5,102 bases of DNA from a virus (Duplodnaviria > Heunggongvirae > Uroviricota > Caudoviricetes), in the IMG/VR virus record IMGVR_UViG_2547132272_000019; one strand, 5' to 3'. Below, one piece after another: positions 817 to 5,102 of this stretch. The position numbers and the translations under genes are program-made. Under the pieces are notes generated by a model, which saw only the letters and a list, made by a program, of their open reading frames with translations, did no database searches and was not told the origin of the DNA. The first letter of the stretch is position 1. Every line of letters starts with the position of its first letter.

Positions 817-1363
817 CGGGGAAGCCATTCTGCTGCGCAACATCACCGTCAGCGCCACCATGCAACTACCGGACAAAGATATGTCCGGACAGTCAACCAG
901 CACCACGAGCGCCCAGCAGGGAAGCAAGGCTAAAGAGCTGCGCGTGTCGGGGGTTATTGATTTTAACGATGAAGCTATTCTGACCCGTATTTTTCAGCTT
1001 GCGGAGGCAACAGAAAGCAATGGCGCGAAAAAAACATATCGCATTGCTAACGCTACCGCGAAGGCAATCAATATGCGACAGGGGGTATTTTCTGGTGGCA
1101 TTGATGCCACGGAACAACAGGGAAAAATGCACTGGCAGGTCACCTTTACTCTCAGGGAAAAATTAAGCGTGCCAGAGAAAGCGTCTGCACGTAGCGGTTC
1201 GCAGAAAACCATCGCCAGACAGCAGACCCAGAACGGTAGCGAACAGGCACCAGACAAAGGCATGAATACGCAAAGTTCGTTCTGGAAAAAAATCAATGAT
1301 GCCGTTGGCTCTGGTCTGGATGCTGTTGGTATCGGGAGCGTGAAAGAGGAAGGGAAAACATGA
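788..1363 (+). CDS. hypothetical protein, 191 aa; possibly part of a phage-tail-like module
   Basis: Strong Shine-Dalgarno AAGGGAGG at about 773-780, 7 nt before ATG 788. The TGA stop at 1361-1363 overlaps the ATG 1360 of the next gene (ATGA). The 29-nt overlap with the previous gene is consistent with an operon. Confidence 0.65.
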   Translation: MTQMIVLALDGEAILLRNITVSATMQLPDKDMSGQSTSTTSAQQGSKAKELRVSGVIDFNDEAILTRIFQLAEATESNGAKKTYRIANATAKAINMRQGVFSGGIDATEQQGKMHWQVTFTLREKLSVPEKASARSGSQKTIARQQTQNGSEQAPDKGMNTQSSFWKKINDAVGSGLDAVGIGSVKEEGKT

Positions 1364-3057
1364 AATTGATACAACGCTGCATGATTAATGGCGAACGGGT
1401 GGAAATTGCCGATATAAACCTTGTTCTTACCCTGAATGCTGCCGGTCGTGGCTTCATTTCTGTTAATAATCTGTCACCAGAAAAAAGCCTTGCCGGCGCA
1501 ATGGTACAAATTGATCTCGGCCGTGACGGTGAAGTCTGGCGCTATTTCTCCGGCTACGTTGAACGCGACCAACCCGCCGAAAATGGTTCGCGCCGCCTTT
1601 TTATCCGTGAAGCAGCTGCTGTGCTGGATTTTGATTTCCCCTGCTCCATGCAACACCCGACGTTGCGGGAGGTGTTAGATAATCTGGGACGACAAAGCGG
1701 CATCGTTTTTATCACCCCGGACGCGGATTATGTCAACACACCAACCCCCTACATCACCCACAGCGGCAGCGGAACGCAGCTACTCAGCCAGCTGGGGCGC
1801 GCATTCAGTATCAGCGATTACGTCTGGCACCCAATGCCGGACGGTTCTGTATTTGTGGGAAGCGCCGCTGATTCACGATTTGCCAGTATTACGATGCCGG
1901 ATATTCCGCAACAGTACGCTCTCGGGCAAAGCGGCGGAAACAGCATCGACATCATGTTCATGGAAACTGTGCGACCGGGCGTGAATCTTCCCGCCGGGCG
2001 TATTACCCGCGTAGCCCTCAACAACGAGAAAATGACTCTGACGTGGGAGCGCCTTACCGTCACGGGCAGCCCTGTCTCCAAATCACCATTACGCAGACAG
2101 ATGGAAACACAGTTCCCGGAACTGGCCAGCGGCACACTACACACCAGGCTGGCGCGCGTCATTGCACCAACGGAATCCGCCACCCTGGGCGATGTGGCCG
2201 ACAGCTTCCGTCCACGCTACGCCGTGGACGTGCAACTGCTCGATGAGGACGGCAACGATAAAAGCGATACGCCTGTTTACCCGGCAGTCCCACTCCCCGT
2301 CCCGATGGCTGGTAGCGAGGCGGGATGTTTTGCCTACCCGCCGGCAGGCACCATCGTGGAAATATCTAACATTGAAGGGCGCCCGGATAAACCTGTTATC
2401 AGGCAAATCTTACCCGCTGGCCATAACCTGCCTGATGTAAAGCCCGGCGAACAACTGCAGCAACAGCGCGCAGAAGTGTTTCAGCGCGTCACGACTGACG
2501 GAAGCTGGCACAGAGAAACAGACCAGCAAATCAGGGAGCAGTCAGCCACCCGCACAATCAACAGTGATGCAGAAGAGCGCACCACAACAACCAGAACAAC
2601 CACAGTACGGGCAAACGACATAACCAGTGTTCTGGGAACCAGCAAGCTGGCGGCAGGACAAATAGAGCACCTTACTACCGGCCATTACGCGATCGCAGCC
2701 AGCGAGCATATCCAGATGGTAGCGCAGGATTTGCTGACTAAACTCAAAGGAGCAATATCCACGATTGAGCAGGACCTGACTGAAAACGTGGGAGGCCGCA
2801 GAATATGCCGGGCGGACGGCGGTCTGAAGTTTACAGCCCCGACAGTATTTATTGGTCGCGGTGGCTCACGGGAAAAATCCGAACTTAATCTGCTGACGTT
2901 GTTGATTGATATTCTGGATCTGATTCAATTGCTGGCCACGCACACAGCAAACCACACCCACAGCAACACTGGCGCACCAATGAACAGCGGCGAACTTGCC
3001 GCAGATGCCCTGCAGGCTACGAGCCTGCGCGAAAAATACGGCGACCTTATCGCCTGA
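1360..3057 (+). CDS. 565-aa protein, putative phage tail / baseplate-hub (P2 gpD 'late control D'-like) protein; family assignment tentative
   Basis: Long ORF with SD GAGGAAGGG upstream and an ATGA overlap with the preceding gene. The N-terminal segment INGERVEIADINLVLTLNAAGRGF matches, from memory, the I-x-GE-x-V-x-I-...-L-x-L-...-RGF pattern of gpD-type tail proteins. Contains a TTTTRTTTV low-complexity stretch and a His-rich C-terminus (HTANHTHSNTG). Followed by an intrinsic terminator. Confidence 0.5.
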   Translation: MKLIQRCMINGERVEIADINLVLTLNAAGRGFISVNNLSPEKSLAGAMVQIDLGRDGEVWRYFSGYVERDQPAENGSRRLFIREAAAVLDFDFPCSMQHPTLREVLDNLGRQSGIVFITPDADYVNTPTPYITHSGSGTQLLSQLGRAFSISDYVWHPMPDGSVFVGSAADSRFASITMPDIPQQYALGQSGGNSIDIMFMETVRPGVNLPAGRITRVALNNEKMTLTWERLTVTGSPVSKSPLRRQMETQFPELASGTLHTRLARVIAPTESATLGDVADSFRPRYAVDVQLLDEDGNDKSDTPVYPAVPLPVPMAGSEAGCFAYPPAGTIVEISNIEGRPDKPVIRQILPAGHNLPDVKPGEQLQQQRAEVFQRVTTDGSWHRETDQQIREQSATRTINSDAEERTTTTRTTTVRANDITSVLGTSKLAAGQIEHLTTGHYAIAASEHIQMVAQDLLTKLKGAISTIEQDLTENVGGRRICRADGGLKFTAPTVFIGRGGSREKSELNLLTLLIDILDLIQLLATHTANHTHSNTGAPMNSGELAADALQATSLREKYGDLIA

Positions 3058-3095
3058 TCACCTGGACATAAAAGCCACATAAACGCCCATCACAC

Positions 3096-3123
3096 AACGC
3101 ACGGCTTCGGCCGTGCGTTTTCA
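3096..3123 (+). terminator. Rho-independent terminator of the + strand operon
   Basis: Perfect 10-bp inverted repeat aacgcacggc (3096-3105) / gccgtgcgtt (3110-3119) with a TTCG tetraloop, followed by a T-run; lies 39 nt after the stop at 3057. Confidence 0.7.
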
Positions 3124-3188
3124 TATCTGCCACCTGATTAATGCGTTCTGCGCGCCATTCTGGCGCTGTATGCGCACACCGCGTAAAC

Positions 3189-3218
3189 GGTGTGACGTAA
3201 AGCGTGAGGTGACGTAAA
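3189..3218. repeat. tandem direct repeat GGTG(T)GACGTAAA, two copies about 19 bp apart; possible protein-binding sites
   Basis: ggtgtgacgtaaa at 3189-3201 and ggtgacgtaaa at 3208-3218; a further CGTAAA at 3182-3187 sits in the loop of a 7-bp hairpin (cacaccg/cggtgtg, 3175-3194). Confidence 0.4.
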
Positions 3219-3324
3219 CCGCGCTACCCCCTCCAACCCGCGGGTTTTGTGTCGAAACACTTTTTCAGTTTTCTGCCGTGCAAAAATGACCGCCAGCCCG
3301 CGCAGCGACTGAGGGAAAAGCGAA

Positions 3325-3583
3325 GATCTGAAATTTCACGCTTTGAAATTTTTTGCAGTTTTCAGCGAGTTTTTTACGATCTCATAAATGGCAGGAGCAA
3401 TGAAACCGCATGATATTAAAAGAGTTTTCATACTTTACGCGAGACAAAAAAACGATCACGAAAGGATCGCATCAAACAACCATCAAACAGCGAAGTCAGA
3501 CGCGGCGCGGCCTGCGTAAAATTGAGAGTCAAAATTAAACTGAAAAAAGGATCAATACCGCGCCTCGATCGCGCATGACGATC
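3325..3583. repeat. GATC-dense, AT-rich block (7 Dam sites in about 260 bp) with short direct repeats
   Basis: GATC at 3325, 3378, 3454, 3465, 3550, 3567 and 3580, versus about 8 in the remaining ~4.8 kb. Includes catcaaaca x2 (3469-3491), an imperfect repeat ttttt(g)cagttttc (3262-3282 vs 3350-3370), and an A7 run plus 5-bp hairpin at 3446-3469. Confidence 0.5.
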
Positions 3584-3600
3584 TATGCAGCAACAGGACG

Positions 3601-3623
3601 AAAAAAACCGGCGCGAACGCCGG
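3601..3623 (-). terminator. Rho-independent terminator on the - strand
   Basis: GC-rich 6-bp stem ccggcg (3608-3613) / cgccgg (3618-3623) with a CGAA loop. On the - strand it is followed by U7 (the + strand A-run at 3601-3607); on the + strand there is no U-tail. Confidence 0.55.
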
Positions 3624-3664
3624 CGGAAGCATGTATCAAATGCGTGACTGAATAATGTCTGCGG
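3601..3664 (-). ncRNA. candidate ~60-nt small RNA, divergent from the hok promoter; function unknown
   Basis: A - strand promoter-like pair lies about 7 nt upstream of the predicted start, and the strong - strand terminator at 3601-3623 lies about 60 nt downstream. No ORF with an RBS in between. Confidence 0.35.
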
Positions 3665-3670
3665 TCGGGA

Positions 3671-3700
3671 ATTTTACATCAGAAGGCTGATAAGTCTCAA
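3671..3700 (-). promoter_or_regulatory. sigma70-like promoter for the candidate sRNA
   Basis: Read on the - strand: -35 TTGAGA (+ strand 3695-3700), 18-bp spacer, -10 TAAAAT (+ strand 3671-3676). Back-to-back with the hok promoter. Confidence 0.35.
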
Positions 3701-3704
3701 CGGA

Positions 3705-3734
3705 TTGAAACAAGGGAAAAAACCAGGCTAGAAT
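3705..3734 (+). promoter_or_regulatory. putative hok mRNA promoter
   Basis: -35 TTGAAA (3705-3710), 18-bp spacer, -10 TAGAAT (3729-3734). Predicted start near 3741 coincides with the 5' element that pairs with the mRNA 3' end. Confidence 0.4.
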
Positions 3735-3784
3735 TCGCGCGGGTGCCTTTCGGCTGATGGCTGGAGGGAATACCCGAAGGCCGA

Positions 3785-3970
3785 ATGTGGAAAGGCCCCG
3801 AGTCAACTTTAACGTTAACCCGAGGCCCTAGCCATACAACCTTCGCAAGTCGTAGGTTAGCGCCTCCCCGAAAAAGGAGCAAGCGCTATGTCGCAAAAAT
3901 CGCTTACGGCCATTACGTTCTGCGTAACGGCAATCCTCATCATCTGGATGCTACACGGTTCACTGTGTGA
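3785..3970 (+). CDS. mok-like overlapping reading frame (61 codons) for translational coupling to hok
   Basis: ATG 3785 preceded by GAAGG (3776-3780). The frame overlaps the hok start and ends inside hok in a different frame, matching hok/mok architecture. No independent homology recognised. Confidence 0.35.
   Translation: MWKGPESTLTLTRGPSHTTFASRRLAPPRKRSKRYVAKIAYGHYVLRNGNPHHLDATRFTV
3786..3847 (-). ncRNA. Sok-like cis-antisense antitoxin RNA (about 60 nt); boundaries approximate
   Basis: Expected by hok/sok architecture. A - strand promoter candidate overlaps the hok SD. The extended hairpin at 3794-3827 is fully paired only on the - strand transcript (G-U wobbles there are C/A mismatches on the + strand) and is followed by UUU on the - strand. 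Confidence 0.3.
3854..3882 (-). promoter_or_regulatory. candidate Sok promoter
   Basis: Read on the - strand: -35 TTGCTC (+ strand 3877-3882), 17-bp spacer, -10 TAACCT (+ strand 3854-3859). It overlaps the hok SD region. An alternative pair is -35 TTGTAT (3834-3839) with -10 TAACGT (3812-3817). Confidence 0.25.
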
Positions 3971-4028
3971 GATACGGATGAGCTTCTGGGGAGCGGAGTT
4001 TGCGGCGTTCTTACAATGTAGACAGTAA
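3888..4028 (+). CDS. hok: Hok/Gef-family type I toxin, 46 aa (MSQKSLTAITFCVTAILIIWMLHGSLCEIRMSFWGAEFAAFLQCRQ); specific paralog not determined
   Basis: AAGGAG at 3874-3879, 8 nt before ATG 3888. N-terminal hydrophobic transmembrane stretch, then the Hok hallmark SLCEIR and a C-terminal E-x-AAF-L motif (compare Hok ...[22 protein letters not shown]). The ORF is below the size cut-off of the supplied track. Confidence 0.75.
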   Translation: MSQKSLTAITFCVTAILIIWMLHGSLCEIRMSFWGAEFAAFLQCRQ

Positions 4029-4114
4029 GAAAACCGCGACGGGGAAGGCAACTTCCCCGTCAATCGGTTGCCAGGGTAAGGCCGATAAGGCACCCTATAC
4101 ACATCCCAAAGCAG

Positions 4115-4151
4115 AAACCCGCAGCGTAAAACTGCGGGTTTTCTTTTTCTT
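4115..4151. terminator. bidirectional intrinsic terminator shared by the hok mRNA (+) and the convergent yidD-like operon (-)
   Basis: 10-bp stem aaacccgcag (4115-4124) / ctgcgggttt (4132-4141) with loop CGTAAAA. On the + strand it is followed by TCTTTTTCTT; on the - strand by CUGCUUUG. It lies 7 nt from the yidD-like stop at 4158. Confidence 0.65.
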
Positions 4152-4157
4152 ACGCGC

Positions 4158-4391
4158 TCACGATTTGCGACATTTACAAATATGAGGAGGGTAATCTGCA
4201 CCACCATTAGGCGGACGACAGCGATAAATCCGGCTCAATCCTAATCGCCAGCCTTCAAAAAAGCCATAGCGCCTTATTGACACCAAAGTGTAAGCCGAAC
4301 AGCTTGGAGTATAACGACATCTGTTACGAATGCTGGCTGGCGCATGAGCACGATAATAAAGAATCAGACGTATACTAAGCCATTTAAGCAT
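4158..4391 (-). CDS. YidD-family protein (PF01809, putative membrane protein insertion efficiency factor paralog), 77 aa
   Basis: Translation contains the YidD signature ...RCRYTPSCSAY...GW.L...RI.RC.P...GG.D.P and aligns well with E. coli YidD as recalled from memory. Its start overlaps the stop of the upstream 80-aa gene by 8 nt. Confidence 0.7.
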   Translation of the reverse strand: MLKWLSIRLILYYRAHAPASIRNRCRYTPSCSAYTLVSIRRYGFFEGWRLGLSRIYRCRPPNGGADYPPHICKCRKS

Positions 4392-4626
4392 CTGATACTT
4401 TTTTTCTAAAAGTAATCACATAGTATTGAAAAAACTGCGCCTTTCCGCCACCGAAACACCCCGGCTGCTCTTCTATACCAATCGTATCAACCCGTTGAAA
4501 TTCCCAGCCATCCGCCGCCTGTTCATTAACAACATTCTGAAGATATGCAGCAGCTACCCCCGCTTTATTATCTTTTGCCTTTACAGAAATATTCGGCGGC
4601 ACCTGAATCATTTTATAGGTATACAT
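4384..4626 (-). CDS. small conserved hypothetical protein, 80 aa (possibly DUF4177-like)
   Basis: Strong SD AAGGAG 8 nt upstream of ATG 4626. Translationally coupled to the yidD-like gene. Compact globular-looking sequence with a GWE motif; the family call is from memory only. Confidence 0.55.
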   Translation of the reverse strand: MYTYKMIQVPPNISVKAKDNKAGVAAAYLQNVVNEQAADGWEFQRVDTIGIEEQPGCFGGGKAQFFQYYVITFRKKVSDA

Positions 4627-4772
4627 TACCTGAGCTCCTTTAATAAAAAAGACAGTAATAAACGCCCTAAAACAGCCCGCACCTCACGATGCGAGCATTA
4701 GATCACTATGGCAATATGTGGACAACGCGAAAAATAATCCATTATTTTTCATTGCATTACAGCAGTTTTCGT

Positions 4773-4797: not shown

Positions 4798-5102
4798 TTA
4801 TGACTTATCCCTGTCTAACCAGTCGCCGCTTTCAATCAGCGTTAATCCATCGACGGGTCGTTGATAAACGTACATCCATGCACTCCCGTACGGCGTCTGA
4901 ATCAACTGGCGCGCGTATTCACCGCCCCTGGTGCGCAAGGCATCAAGTTCGGCCAGCGTGGCGTTGTCAATACGATAAACTTCACCGTGTACCGTTCCGT
5001 TTCCCGGAACTGCGCCTGGATAGTGGCCCAGGCTATACAACTGGTAGTTATCGATACTGAAATCGCCCAGCAACTGGGCATTGGTCATCCAGTGGCTGGG
5101 GG
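4798..5102 (-). CDS. ytfP: gamma-glutamylcyclotransferase-family (AIG2/GGCT-like) protein YtfP, 3' portion; start lies beyond the window end
   Basis: Translation ...SHWMTNAQLLGDFSIDNYQLYSLGHYPGAVPGNGTVHGEVYRIDNATLAELDALRTRGGEYARQLIQTPYGSAWMYVYQRPVDGLTLIESGDWLDRDKS* matches E. coli YtfP as recalled from memory. The frame stays open to the window edge upstream of the track's Met at 5088. Confidence 0.8.
   Translation of the reverse strand, partial: PSHWMTNAQLLGDFSIDNYQLYSLGHYPGAVPGNGTVHGEVYRIDNATLAELDALRTRGGEYARQLIQTPYGSAWMYVYQRPVDGLTLIESGDWLDRDKS

Follow-up and report, generated by a model that had tools for sequence, protein, structure and literature searches.

A GATC-rich prophage spacer forms the right arm of a predicted HP1-type cos region and may link packaging to Dam methylation

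The 5,102-bp stretch of viral DNA analysed here (IMG/VR record IMGVR_UViG_2547132272_000019, hereafter the window) contains a spacer in which GATC tetramers are crowded into positions 3325–3583. Comparison with related phages and prophages gives good support to the reading that a conserved noncoding block at ~3181 to 3583 is the cos (cohesive-end) region of an HP1/ESSI-2-type prophage of the P2 family, with the GATC-dense part forming its right arm. The genes to the left of the spacer are late genes of such a prophage (Peduoviridae). The last of them, at 1360–3057 on the plus strand, encodes an HP1 orf35-type baseplate protein (phrog_2258, E=5e-232; 41% identity to orf35 of HP1/HP2 and 47% to that of ESSI-2 by tblastn) and provides the positional landmark for cos, while the gene upstream of it (788–1363) matches PF25759, HP1_ORF34. 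The same tail-spacer-hok arrangement is found at 92–97% identity in ~40 complete E. coli genomes, and in STEC316 the region represented by the window is the right end of a complete prophage with the order int, C, cox, replication gene A, ParM, ogr, portal, terminase, head/tail genes, orf34, orf35, ~830 bp of unannotated DNA and hok. The packaging and head genes of this prophage (GPO scaffold, P2-family capsid, gpM, large terminase and portal) have no counterpart within the 5.1-kb window, and it is in this complete relative that the block is seen linked to P2-family terminase, portal and capsid genes.

A 'distant' blastn search with 3058–3740 against 50,697 phage records returned no match; it took an anchor on orf35, followed by alignment of the termini by eye and with a hidden Markov model (HMM), to reveal the homology to phage termini. 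The predicted cohesive-end segment (cosN), CTACCCCCTCCAACCCGC, lies at 3224–3241, with boundaries uncertain by ~3 nt and no strand assigned. It is C-rich and aligns with two references, the 16-nt cos annotated in phiO18P (CTCATCCGCTCCCGCC) and a 15-nt segment of ESSI-2 that is duplicated at the two ends of its record; the TGC that follows the core is part of a layout shared with the phage termini. To the left of the core, at 3181–3221 on the plus strand, are three direct repeats (CGTAAAC / GTGACGTAAAG / GTGACGTAAAC), candidate terminase-binding sites that correspond, by repeat analysis and by the alignment of termini, to the three CACGGAA(A) repeats of HP1, PV94 and phiO18P. The distance from the stop codon of the orf35-type gene to cos is 167 nt in the window, compared with 192 nt in HP1, 200 nt in phiO18P, ~198 nt in ESSI-2 and mostly 155–300 nt in 67 prophage loci. 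These loci come from a search with a cos HMM, built from the termini of HP1-type phages, of 76 prophage loci of Enterobacterales and Pasteurellaceae, which gave one site downstream of orf35 in 67 of the 76. In the complete STEC316 prophage the model found the homologous site only, and on L034, which is near-identical to the window, it scored E=6e-32.

Taken against the HP1-type cos (HP1 and phiO18P, with cosL/cosR as annotated in GenBank, and the ESSI-2 termini), the window shares the position ~170–200 bp after an orf35-type gene, a C-rich core of 15–18 nt homologous to mapped or annotated termini, three CACG(G/T)AAA repeats to its left, a TTTTTCAG element at +40 with TTTTTCAGTT as its core, a GC box at +75 and an inverted TTTACGTG at +215. 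It differs in the core itself, which is CTACCCCCTCCAACCCGC rather than CTACACCGCACCCGCC (ESSI-2 type) or TCCTTCCCCACC (HP1). Judged by alignment, the predicted cos region of the window is a new, distinct allele of HP1-type cos. Compared with the ESSI-2 and K139 types, the window's lineage is without the GGATC at +28 and has the largest GATC array (seven sites). The literature that we searched does not describe the conserved right arm, or the GATCs on it, for any member of the HP1/P2-type cos group.

Several observations on the cores of relatives deserve mention. The 16-mer of the ESSI-2 type, CTACACCGCACCCGCC, shows hardly any variation among more than 50 prophages (within the cores of L034–L113), the hosts of which include Xenorhabdus, Photorhabdus, Providencia, Serratia, Yersinia, Erwinia and Enterobacter, among others. 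Several of the Xenorhabdus and Photorhabdus loci have ~1 kb of extra DNA between orf35 and cos. The record of Vibrio phage K139 (L118, NC_003313) starts and ends inside the GGATC located 28 nt to the right of the cos core; since this break falls within GGATC and not at cohesive ends, the first base of the record is not the virion end.

The right arm is modular. The family-wide '+40' element (TTTTTCAGTTTTCTGC, 3261–3276, plus strand) is present in HP1, ESSI-2, PV94 and even P2, and its core, TTTTTCAGTT at 3261–3271, could be aligned across the termini. It is followed on the plus strand by a GC box (CCGCCAGCCCGCGCAG, 3290–3306) that is kept in ESSI-2, phiO18P, Edwardsiella and Enterobacterales prophages, by a second TTTT(T/G)CAGTTTTC element (TTTTGCAGTTTTCAGC, 3351–3366) that is a direct repeat of 3261–3276 and is kept in L028 and L035, and by a ATGATATTAAAAGAG element (3410–3424) that reads 'attaaaagag' in ESSI-2 and 'gtaaaagag' in HP1 and is also found in Xenorhabdus loci. 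On the minus strand at 3433–3441, CTTTACGCG is an inverted copy of the left-of-cos CACGTAAA repeat; it lies at ~+215 in nearly all lineages and, again in nearly all of them, is followed by a GATC within 3–20 bp. Two copies of CATCAAACA (3470–3478 and 3481–3489, plus strand, 11 bp apart) are lineage-specific and weakly conserved. A second GC box, GGCGCGGCCTGCG, followed by another CGTAAA (3504–3520, plus strand), is conserved, and AAACTGAAAAA (3537–3547, minus strand) repeats the +40 element perfectly in inverted orientation, at a distance of 265 nt; lineages that have TTTTGCAAAA as their +40 element have TTTTGCAAAA at the inverted site too. Phages ranging from those of Haemophilus to those of Escherichia share the inverted repeat at +215, the second GC box and the inverted +40 copy. 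The block has a sharp right edge, with L021 and L028 diverging right after the last GATC.

Both sides of the block are marked by terminator-like structures. On the left, a hairpin read from the sequence (ACGCACGGC-TTCG-GCCGTGCGT followed by TTTT; 3097–3122, plus strand) is kept in close relatives and is probably the late-operon terminator, insulating the cos block on that side; a strict terminator scan did not flag it, and K139 has an annotated terminator at the equivalent place, after orf39. On the right, a strong minus-strand terminator (GCCGGCGTTCGCGCCGG followed by a T run, 3601–3624) was flagged by the scan and forms the right insulator and the boundary of the block.

The spacer had been described from its letters as free of open reading frames (ORFs), a description that we can uphold: small ORFs at 3249–3413, 3388–3519 and 3410–3538 have no family matches, and the ORFs of 42–43 aa in the block are broken in close relatives by indels of 1–2 nt. 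Rfam models at E≤1 gave nothing in 3058–3730, folding of the RNA of both strands gave structures no stabler than those of shuffled sequences (z +1.27 and −0.50), and a scan for sigma-70-like promoters found none in 3060–3670. Given the absence of a promoter, an Rfam match, unusual RNA stability and a conserved ORF from these searches, we read the block as a site that acts at the level of DNA.

Of the 15 GATC sites in the window, seven start inside the 259 bp of 3325–3583 (3325, 3378, 3454, 3465, 3550, 3567 and 3580, or +102, +155, +231, +242, +327, +344 and +357 from the predicted cos start; no strand), and eight are spread over the remaining 4843 bp. The sequence-only reading of this DNA had reported seven sites within ~260 bp, at ~6-fold the density elsewhere, in an AT-rich stretch. 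The count and the AT-richness are correct (41% GC compared with 51.5% for the whole window) and the enrichment is real, although its size is ~16-fold relative to the rest of the window, the figure of 6-fold being nearer to the ratio against one site per 256 bp. Base composition predicts 0.9 GATC for this span; at least seven were reached in 2 of 5000 order-1 Markov simulations of it, and some 259-bp span with at least seven was found in 5 of 1500 simulations of the whole window. Taken alone, the count is only moderately improbable for a genome scan, and the weight must therefore come from the comparison with relatives. Within the array there are two close groups, a pair at 3454/3465 (11 bp) and a triplet at 3550/3567/3580 (17 and 13 bp), so that phased pairs no more than 31 bp apart, a feature of SeqA-controlled origins, are present. 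The flanks of the seven sites (aGATCt, cGATCt, cGATCa, gGATCg, gGATCa, cGATCg and cGATCt) have only the 4-bp core in common. The direct repeats noted earlier in the same span are both real, the first ttttt-cagttttc copy (3261–3276) lying upstream of it; as for the A-run plus hairpin units, the one at 3446–3470 (A7 followed by CGATC-N7-GATCG) is inside the span and that at 3601–3624, the minus-strand terminator, is outside.

Six lines of evidence from sequence comparison indicate that the GATCs of the arm are themselves selected. Anchored on cos, GATC density in the 67 loci is 6.7 per kb at −100 to 0, 8.4 at 0–100, 13.4 at 100–200 and 11.0 at 200–300, and further right it is 4.7 at +300 to +400 and 1.1–1.6 at +400 to +600, against a background of 2.8 per kb over 411 kb of late genes. 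At least three GATCs are present in +1 to +400 at 57 of these loci, in at least six position patterns. Seventeen representative arms (6.8 kb) contain 73 GATCs where 20.7 are expected from the phage background or 14.4 from their own order-1 Markov model; the other seven palindromes made of one of each base stand at 0.44–1.6-fold, and GATC is the second most enriched of the 256 tetramers, after TTTT. All seven positions are kept in relatives of 90–95% identity, six of the seven in L025 at 72% noncoding identity, and Edwardsiella-type relatives (~60% identity) have six GATCs, five of them in place and site 2 displaced by ~11 nt. In diverged relatives GATC tetramers are retained above random tetramers of the block (permutation P=0.02 and 0.011), and in a metagenome variant (L170) the site at +343 is lost and one at +302 gained, leaving the total at seven. 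The simulations and the family-wide enrichment bear out the earlier claim that the clustering is non-random, and the comparison with homologous loci, which had been suggested as a check, finds GATC clusters next to cos in most of the 67 loci. A separate second cluster, with eight GATCs within 260 bp, lies ~650 bp to the right of cos in Serratia quinivorans (L039).

The GATCs are also helically phased: 18 of the 24 short spacings are 10–12 or 21–23 bp (binomial P=3e-9), and a Rayleigh test peaked at a period of 10.7 bp with P=5e-7, or P=0.004 when the set was reduced to ten lineages. Phages with clusters are those of Enterobacterales, Vibrio (six sites in PV94 and five in K139), Aeromonas (four), Pseudoalteromonas (four, despite a genome density of 1.8 per kb) and Pasteurellaceae (two to four), all of which belong to orders with Dam, SeqA and MutH. 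Three Pseudomonas phages that have a homologous cos core (CACTTATCCCCCTCCCGCC) and the GC box contain 1, 1 and 0 GATCs in +1 to +400, where ~2.6 would be expected, and their genomes have 6–7 GATC per kb. A DNA methyltransferase gene is carried by HP1, F108, K139, PV94, ESSI-2, phiO18P and C5a; according to PMC7556043 and PMC8537503, it is not well understood what phage Dam does in the phage cycle.

The explanation that we favour, and consider reasonably likely, is that the block is a cos-flanking arm for terminase assembly that carries a GATC array readable by Dam and SeqA, with methylation gating of the kind seen at P1 pac. The staggered cut by terminase, which would give cohesive virion ends, is predicted to fall in the C-rich core at ~3224–3241, and the ~350-bp GATC-dense arm to the right of the cut would become the left end of virion DNA. 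Repeated elements in both orientations around the nicking site (TTTTTCAGTTT, CACGTAAA) suggest, by analogy with lambda cosB, wrapping or looping by the small terminase and host factors, and these repeats would most likely organise a nucleoprotein complex of terminase and host factors. The GATC array, lying on one face of the helix, would tie packaging to how far Dam has methylated the phage DNA: just after replication, when copies are hemimethylated, SeqA would occupy them and/or terminase would use them poorly, and full methylation would make a copy competent for packaging. SeqA needs pairs of hemimethylated GATCs one to three helical turns apart, and it is the match of the array to this geometry, together with the precedent of P1 pac, that leads us to propose methylation gating. 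To our knowledge, the proteins that read a bare GATC are Dam, SeqA and MutH. Because the sites share only the 4-bp core, are helically phased and track hosts of the Dam/SeqA/MutH clade, a link to Dam and SeqA appears to be the most economical reading of the cluster. The more specific proposal, that phased arrays next to cosN in HP1-type cos phages of the Dam/SeqA clade of Gammaproteobacteria are methylation-state sensors, written by host or phage Dam and read by SeqA, that time the packaging of the replicated genome, is a tentative one that we would rate below an even chance. Gating of packaging would also make sense of the methyltransferase genes of the seven phages listed above. Position, homology to mapped cos ends, conservation, GATC-specific enrichment, phasing and host distribution were all computed; the assignment of proteins to repeats and the effect of methylation are what we infer.

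A number of observations weigh against this explanation. All seven GATCs are at least 100 bp from the predicted cut and on one side of it, whereas those of P1 flank the cut, and P2 packages its DNA in a Dam+ host without any GATC within −393 to +262 of its cos. The lineages compared are phylogenetically related and the P values are therefore optimistic. Ten of the 67 loci have two GATCs or fewer, HP1 itself having two, and the Dam-negative control consists of the three Pseudomonas phages, which represent two lineages. Across all lineages G occupies position −1 in 69% of 245 distinct GATC contexts, largely owing to a few ancestral sites; in some lineages this could be the trace of a longer motif read by a protein. 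As to the cos assignment, the search for contig ends at the predicted cos gave 18 loci in viral contigs, every one of them internal, and among metagenome contigs, where 74 matches included 7 true homologs, none ends there either. The closest phage record has 47% protein identity, and the cos of the window's lineage is a prediction rather than a position taken from mapped virion ends. Finally, no Dam-type gene is annotated in the relatives of the window (none in STEC316).

The alternative that survives best, although we think it rather unlikely, keeps the cos arm and takes the GATCs to be only part of a motif for a phage or host protein, such as WGGATC half-sites of the small terminase, with methylation being irrelevant. 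The preference for G at −1 and the A/T-rich 5′ flanks favour such a motif, the GATCs adjoin conserved repeats such as TTTACGTG, an array of protein on wrapped DNA would also phase helically, and P2 needs no GATC at all. However, within the window's own lineage nothing beyond the 4-bp core is common to the sites, and sites shift by ~11 nt or are swapped with the count being kept. Moreover, enrichment persists between lineages in spite of varying positions, clusters are missing from Pseudomonas relatives in which the cos core and GC box are preserved, and the readers known for a bare GATC are the three proteins named above.

We regard as very unlikely a Dam-sensitive transcriptional switch of the pap, agn43, opvAB or gtr type that would control a neighbour, for instance hok or a small transcript. 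Switches of this kind typically have clustered GATCs with A/T-rich flanks, and there is a minus-strand promoter-like site at 3700–3671. Against this, no promoter-like site was found in 3060–3670 (Lrp and OxyR motifs were not searched for), and terminators face the block from both sides, the left one as read from the sequence and the right one as flagged by the scan. The block is also kept beside quite different neighbours (attP/int in HP1, phiO18P and K139; other cargo in L021), and in phage P88 the hok module occurs without it. The earlier suggestion of a Dam-sensitive control region stands, in our view, as far as the proposed link to Dam and SeqA is concerned and fails as regards a promoter switch.

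Arm-type Int and IHF sites of an attP are a highly improbable source of the block. The HP1 annotation, with cosL at 1–9, attP at 251–694 and int from 698, does place attP 250 bp from cos, and AT-rich DNA with short direct repeats would suit such sites. Yet the two GATCs of HP1 (+112 and +163) are outside its annotated attP; the end of the prophage in the window (~4772) is ~1.2 kb away, with hok, yidD-like and DUF4177 genes in between; a consensus search found no IHF site in the spacer; and the block stays with the late module even where integrases and att sites differ. The remaining alternative, a replication origin or its remnant under SeqA sequestration, has an oriC-like GATC density, AT-richness and three sites reading GATCT as in the oriC 13-mers in its favour, and is nonetheless exceedingly improbable: in P2/HP1-family phages replication starts at a nick that the A/Rep protein introduces within the gene encoding it, records annotate rep with 'nicking at origin of replication', it is the late/packaging module and not the replication module that the block accompanies, and the search for DnaA or Rep boxes that had been proposed as a check found no DnaA box (TTATNCACA, ≤1 mismatch) in 3058–3730 and no iterons typical of Rep-dependent origins, the repeats of the block matching cos-flank modules of phages instead. 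Of the earlier proposal of a remnant origin or regulatory region of a mobile element, what is left is a cis-acting prophage site.

Among characterised packaging sites, P1 pac is the only one known to have a GATC array of this kind. PMC10028697 and PMC12707154 (citing Sternberg and Coulby 1990) describe it as a 161-bp site with seven TGATCA/G sequences, at which packaging requires Dam methylation. The likeness to our predicted cos arm lies in a packaging site of ~160–350 bp with seven GATCs and in a phage group that usually has its own Dam-type methylase, and we propose, by analogy, that in both cases methylation state gates cleavage. The differences are substantial. In P1, packaging is headful and uses PacA/PacB, and the TGATCA/G hexamers fall within a gene, four on one side of the cut and three on the other; the window lineage has a P2-type cos terminase (in relatives), variable flanks (a/c/g-GATC-t/a/g) and all its sites on one side of the cut, in noncoding DNA. 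P1 pac is defined by, among other things, hexamers flanking the cut on either side and a headful PacA/PacB pacase; both are absent here, so this is not a pac site. The predicted cos arm may nevertheless work like P1 pac, and packaging may be tied to DNA methylation as it is in P1.

P2 cos (Ziermann and Calendar 1990, cited in PMC7617512) belongs with the same terminase family, and our comparison gives it the same right flank, TGCGCGC...TTTTTTCAG, at +20 to +50; it differs in abutting the portal gene Q, in having a right arm of ~160 bp and in having no GATC over the interval given above. Lambda cosQ-cosN-cosB (PMC7617512) likewise has a nicking site flanked by repeated small-terminase sites and forms a bent nucleoprotein complex; there is no sequence relation to the window, lambda is not known to have a GATC array, and the window block has no IHF consensus. 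The SeqA-binding GATC clusters of oriC and P1 oriR resemble the array in having multiple GATCs one or two helical turns apart, and arrays of the window type are restricted to hosts of the Dam/SeqA/MutH clade; unlike those origins, the block has no DnaA boxes and is linked to packaging genes. As for the methylase side of the comparison, we know of no methyltransferase gene in P2.

These results place a predicted cos in a widespread group of Escherichia and Edwardsiella prophages, where annotation leaves ~830 bp blank. A conserved, modular cos arm of ~350 bp, extending from Haemophilus to Escherichia, should be useful for predicting termini in HP1/ESSI-2-type phages as well as for building cosmids or transducing particles for them. 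The location of cos is in itself ordinary but useful; the phased GATC array, which has so far turned up in no phages other than those of Dam-clade hosts, was not to be expected and lends itself to direct testing, and it bears on the old question of why HP1-type phages carry their own Dam methylase. Should packaging prove to be gated in this way, Dam control of packaging would be a recurrent strategy rather than a peculiarity of P1, extending from pac to cos phages, and the dam genes of HP1, K139, PV94, F108 and ESSI-2-like phages would have a function.

To the right of the block is a hok/sok-type type I toxin-antitoxin locus (3741–4028), with the hok coding sequence at 3888–4028 (PF01848) and an overlapping mok-like ORF at 3785–3970; an Rfam sok match at 3741–3901 is below the gathering score (36.7 versus 59 bits). 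With tail and baseplate genes on the left, this agrees with the sequence-only reading, which had put the array between a phage-tail-like operon and a toxin-antitoxin locus. The hok/sok module is common to P88 and many Stx phages. The block is not connected to this locus: P88 shares 3729–4772 at the end of its record, and with it the hok module, without the GATC block. P88 is a true P2-type phage, and its corresponding gap, which we had considered as a possible cos, holds no such site: at 34476–34700 of its record (L002), between a tail gene D homologue and hok, lies an unannotated ogr/Delta-like zinc-finger ORF (MFRCPLCGASARIRTSR...). We likewise rejected the idea that the block is part of the hok mRNA/Sok RNA unit, the sok match beginning at 3741 and the hok promoter-like site at 3705. 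Back-to-back with that site (3705–3734) is a minus-strand sigma-70-like promoter (TTGAGA-18-TAAAAT, 3700–3671), with the strong minus-strand terminator (3624–3607) ~45 nt downstream and no Rfam match there; the two could produce a small RNA of ~60 nt or could merely be a divergent promoter/terminator pair.

Further right, a yidD-like gene (4158–4391) and a DUF4177 gene (4384–4626), both on the minus strand, are phage cargo common to the right end of P88. The prophage/host junction at ~4772 adjoins a minus-strand host gene (4798–5088) that we take to be ytfP. The STEC316 prophage (L001/L003) is flanked by pdxB on the int side and by serS on the hok side. In K-12 these two genes are not known to be adjacent, and their position here suggests that the genome was rearranged or that prophages recombined. 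In E. coli K_EC180 (L212), the closest relative among complete genomes, the cargo beyond hok is different (37055–38489): a TM2-domain gene, a Com-family zinc-ribbon regulator and a beta-class N6_N4 DNA methyltransferase (PF01555) of unassigned specificity, a Com-linked gene that is absent from the window. The K_EC180 prophage has kept the cos block although its head genes and much of its tail module are lost, no portal, terminase, capsid, sheath or tape-measure gene being annotated. Lastly, two contigs of metagenome-assembled genomes labelled Bacillales/Bacillota (L065 and L103) carry an enterobacterial-type prophage tail module, together with the cos block in L065; these host labels probably reflect mis-binning or contamination.

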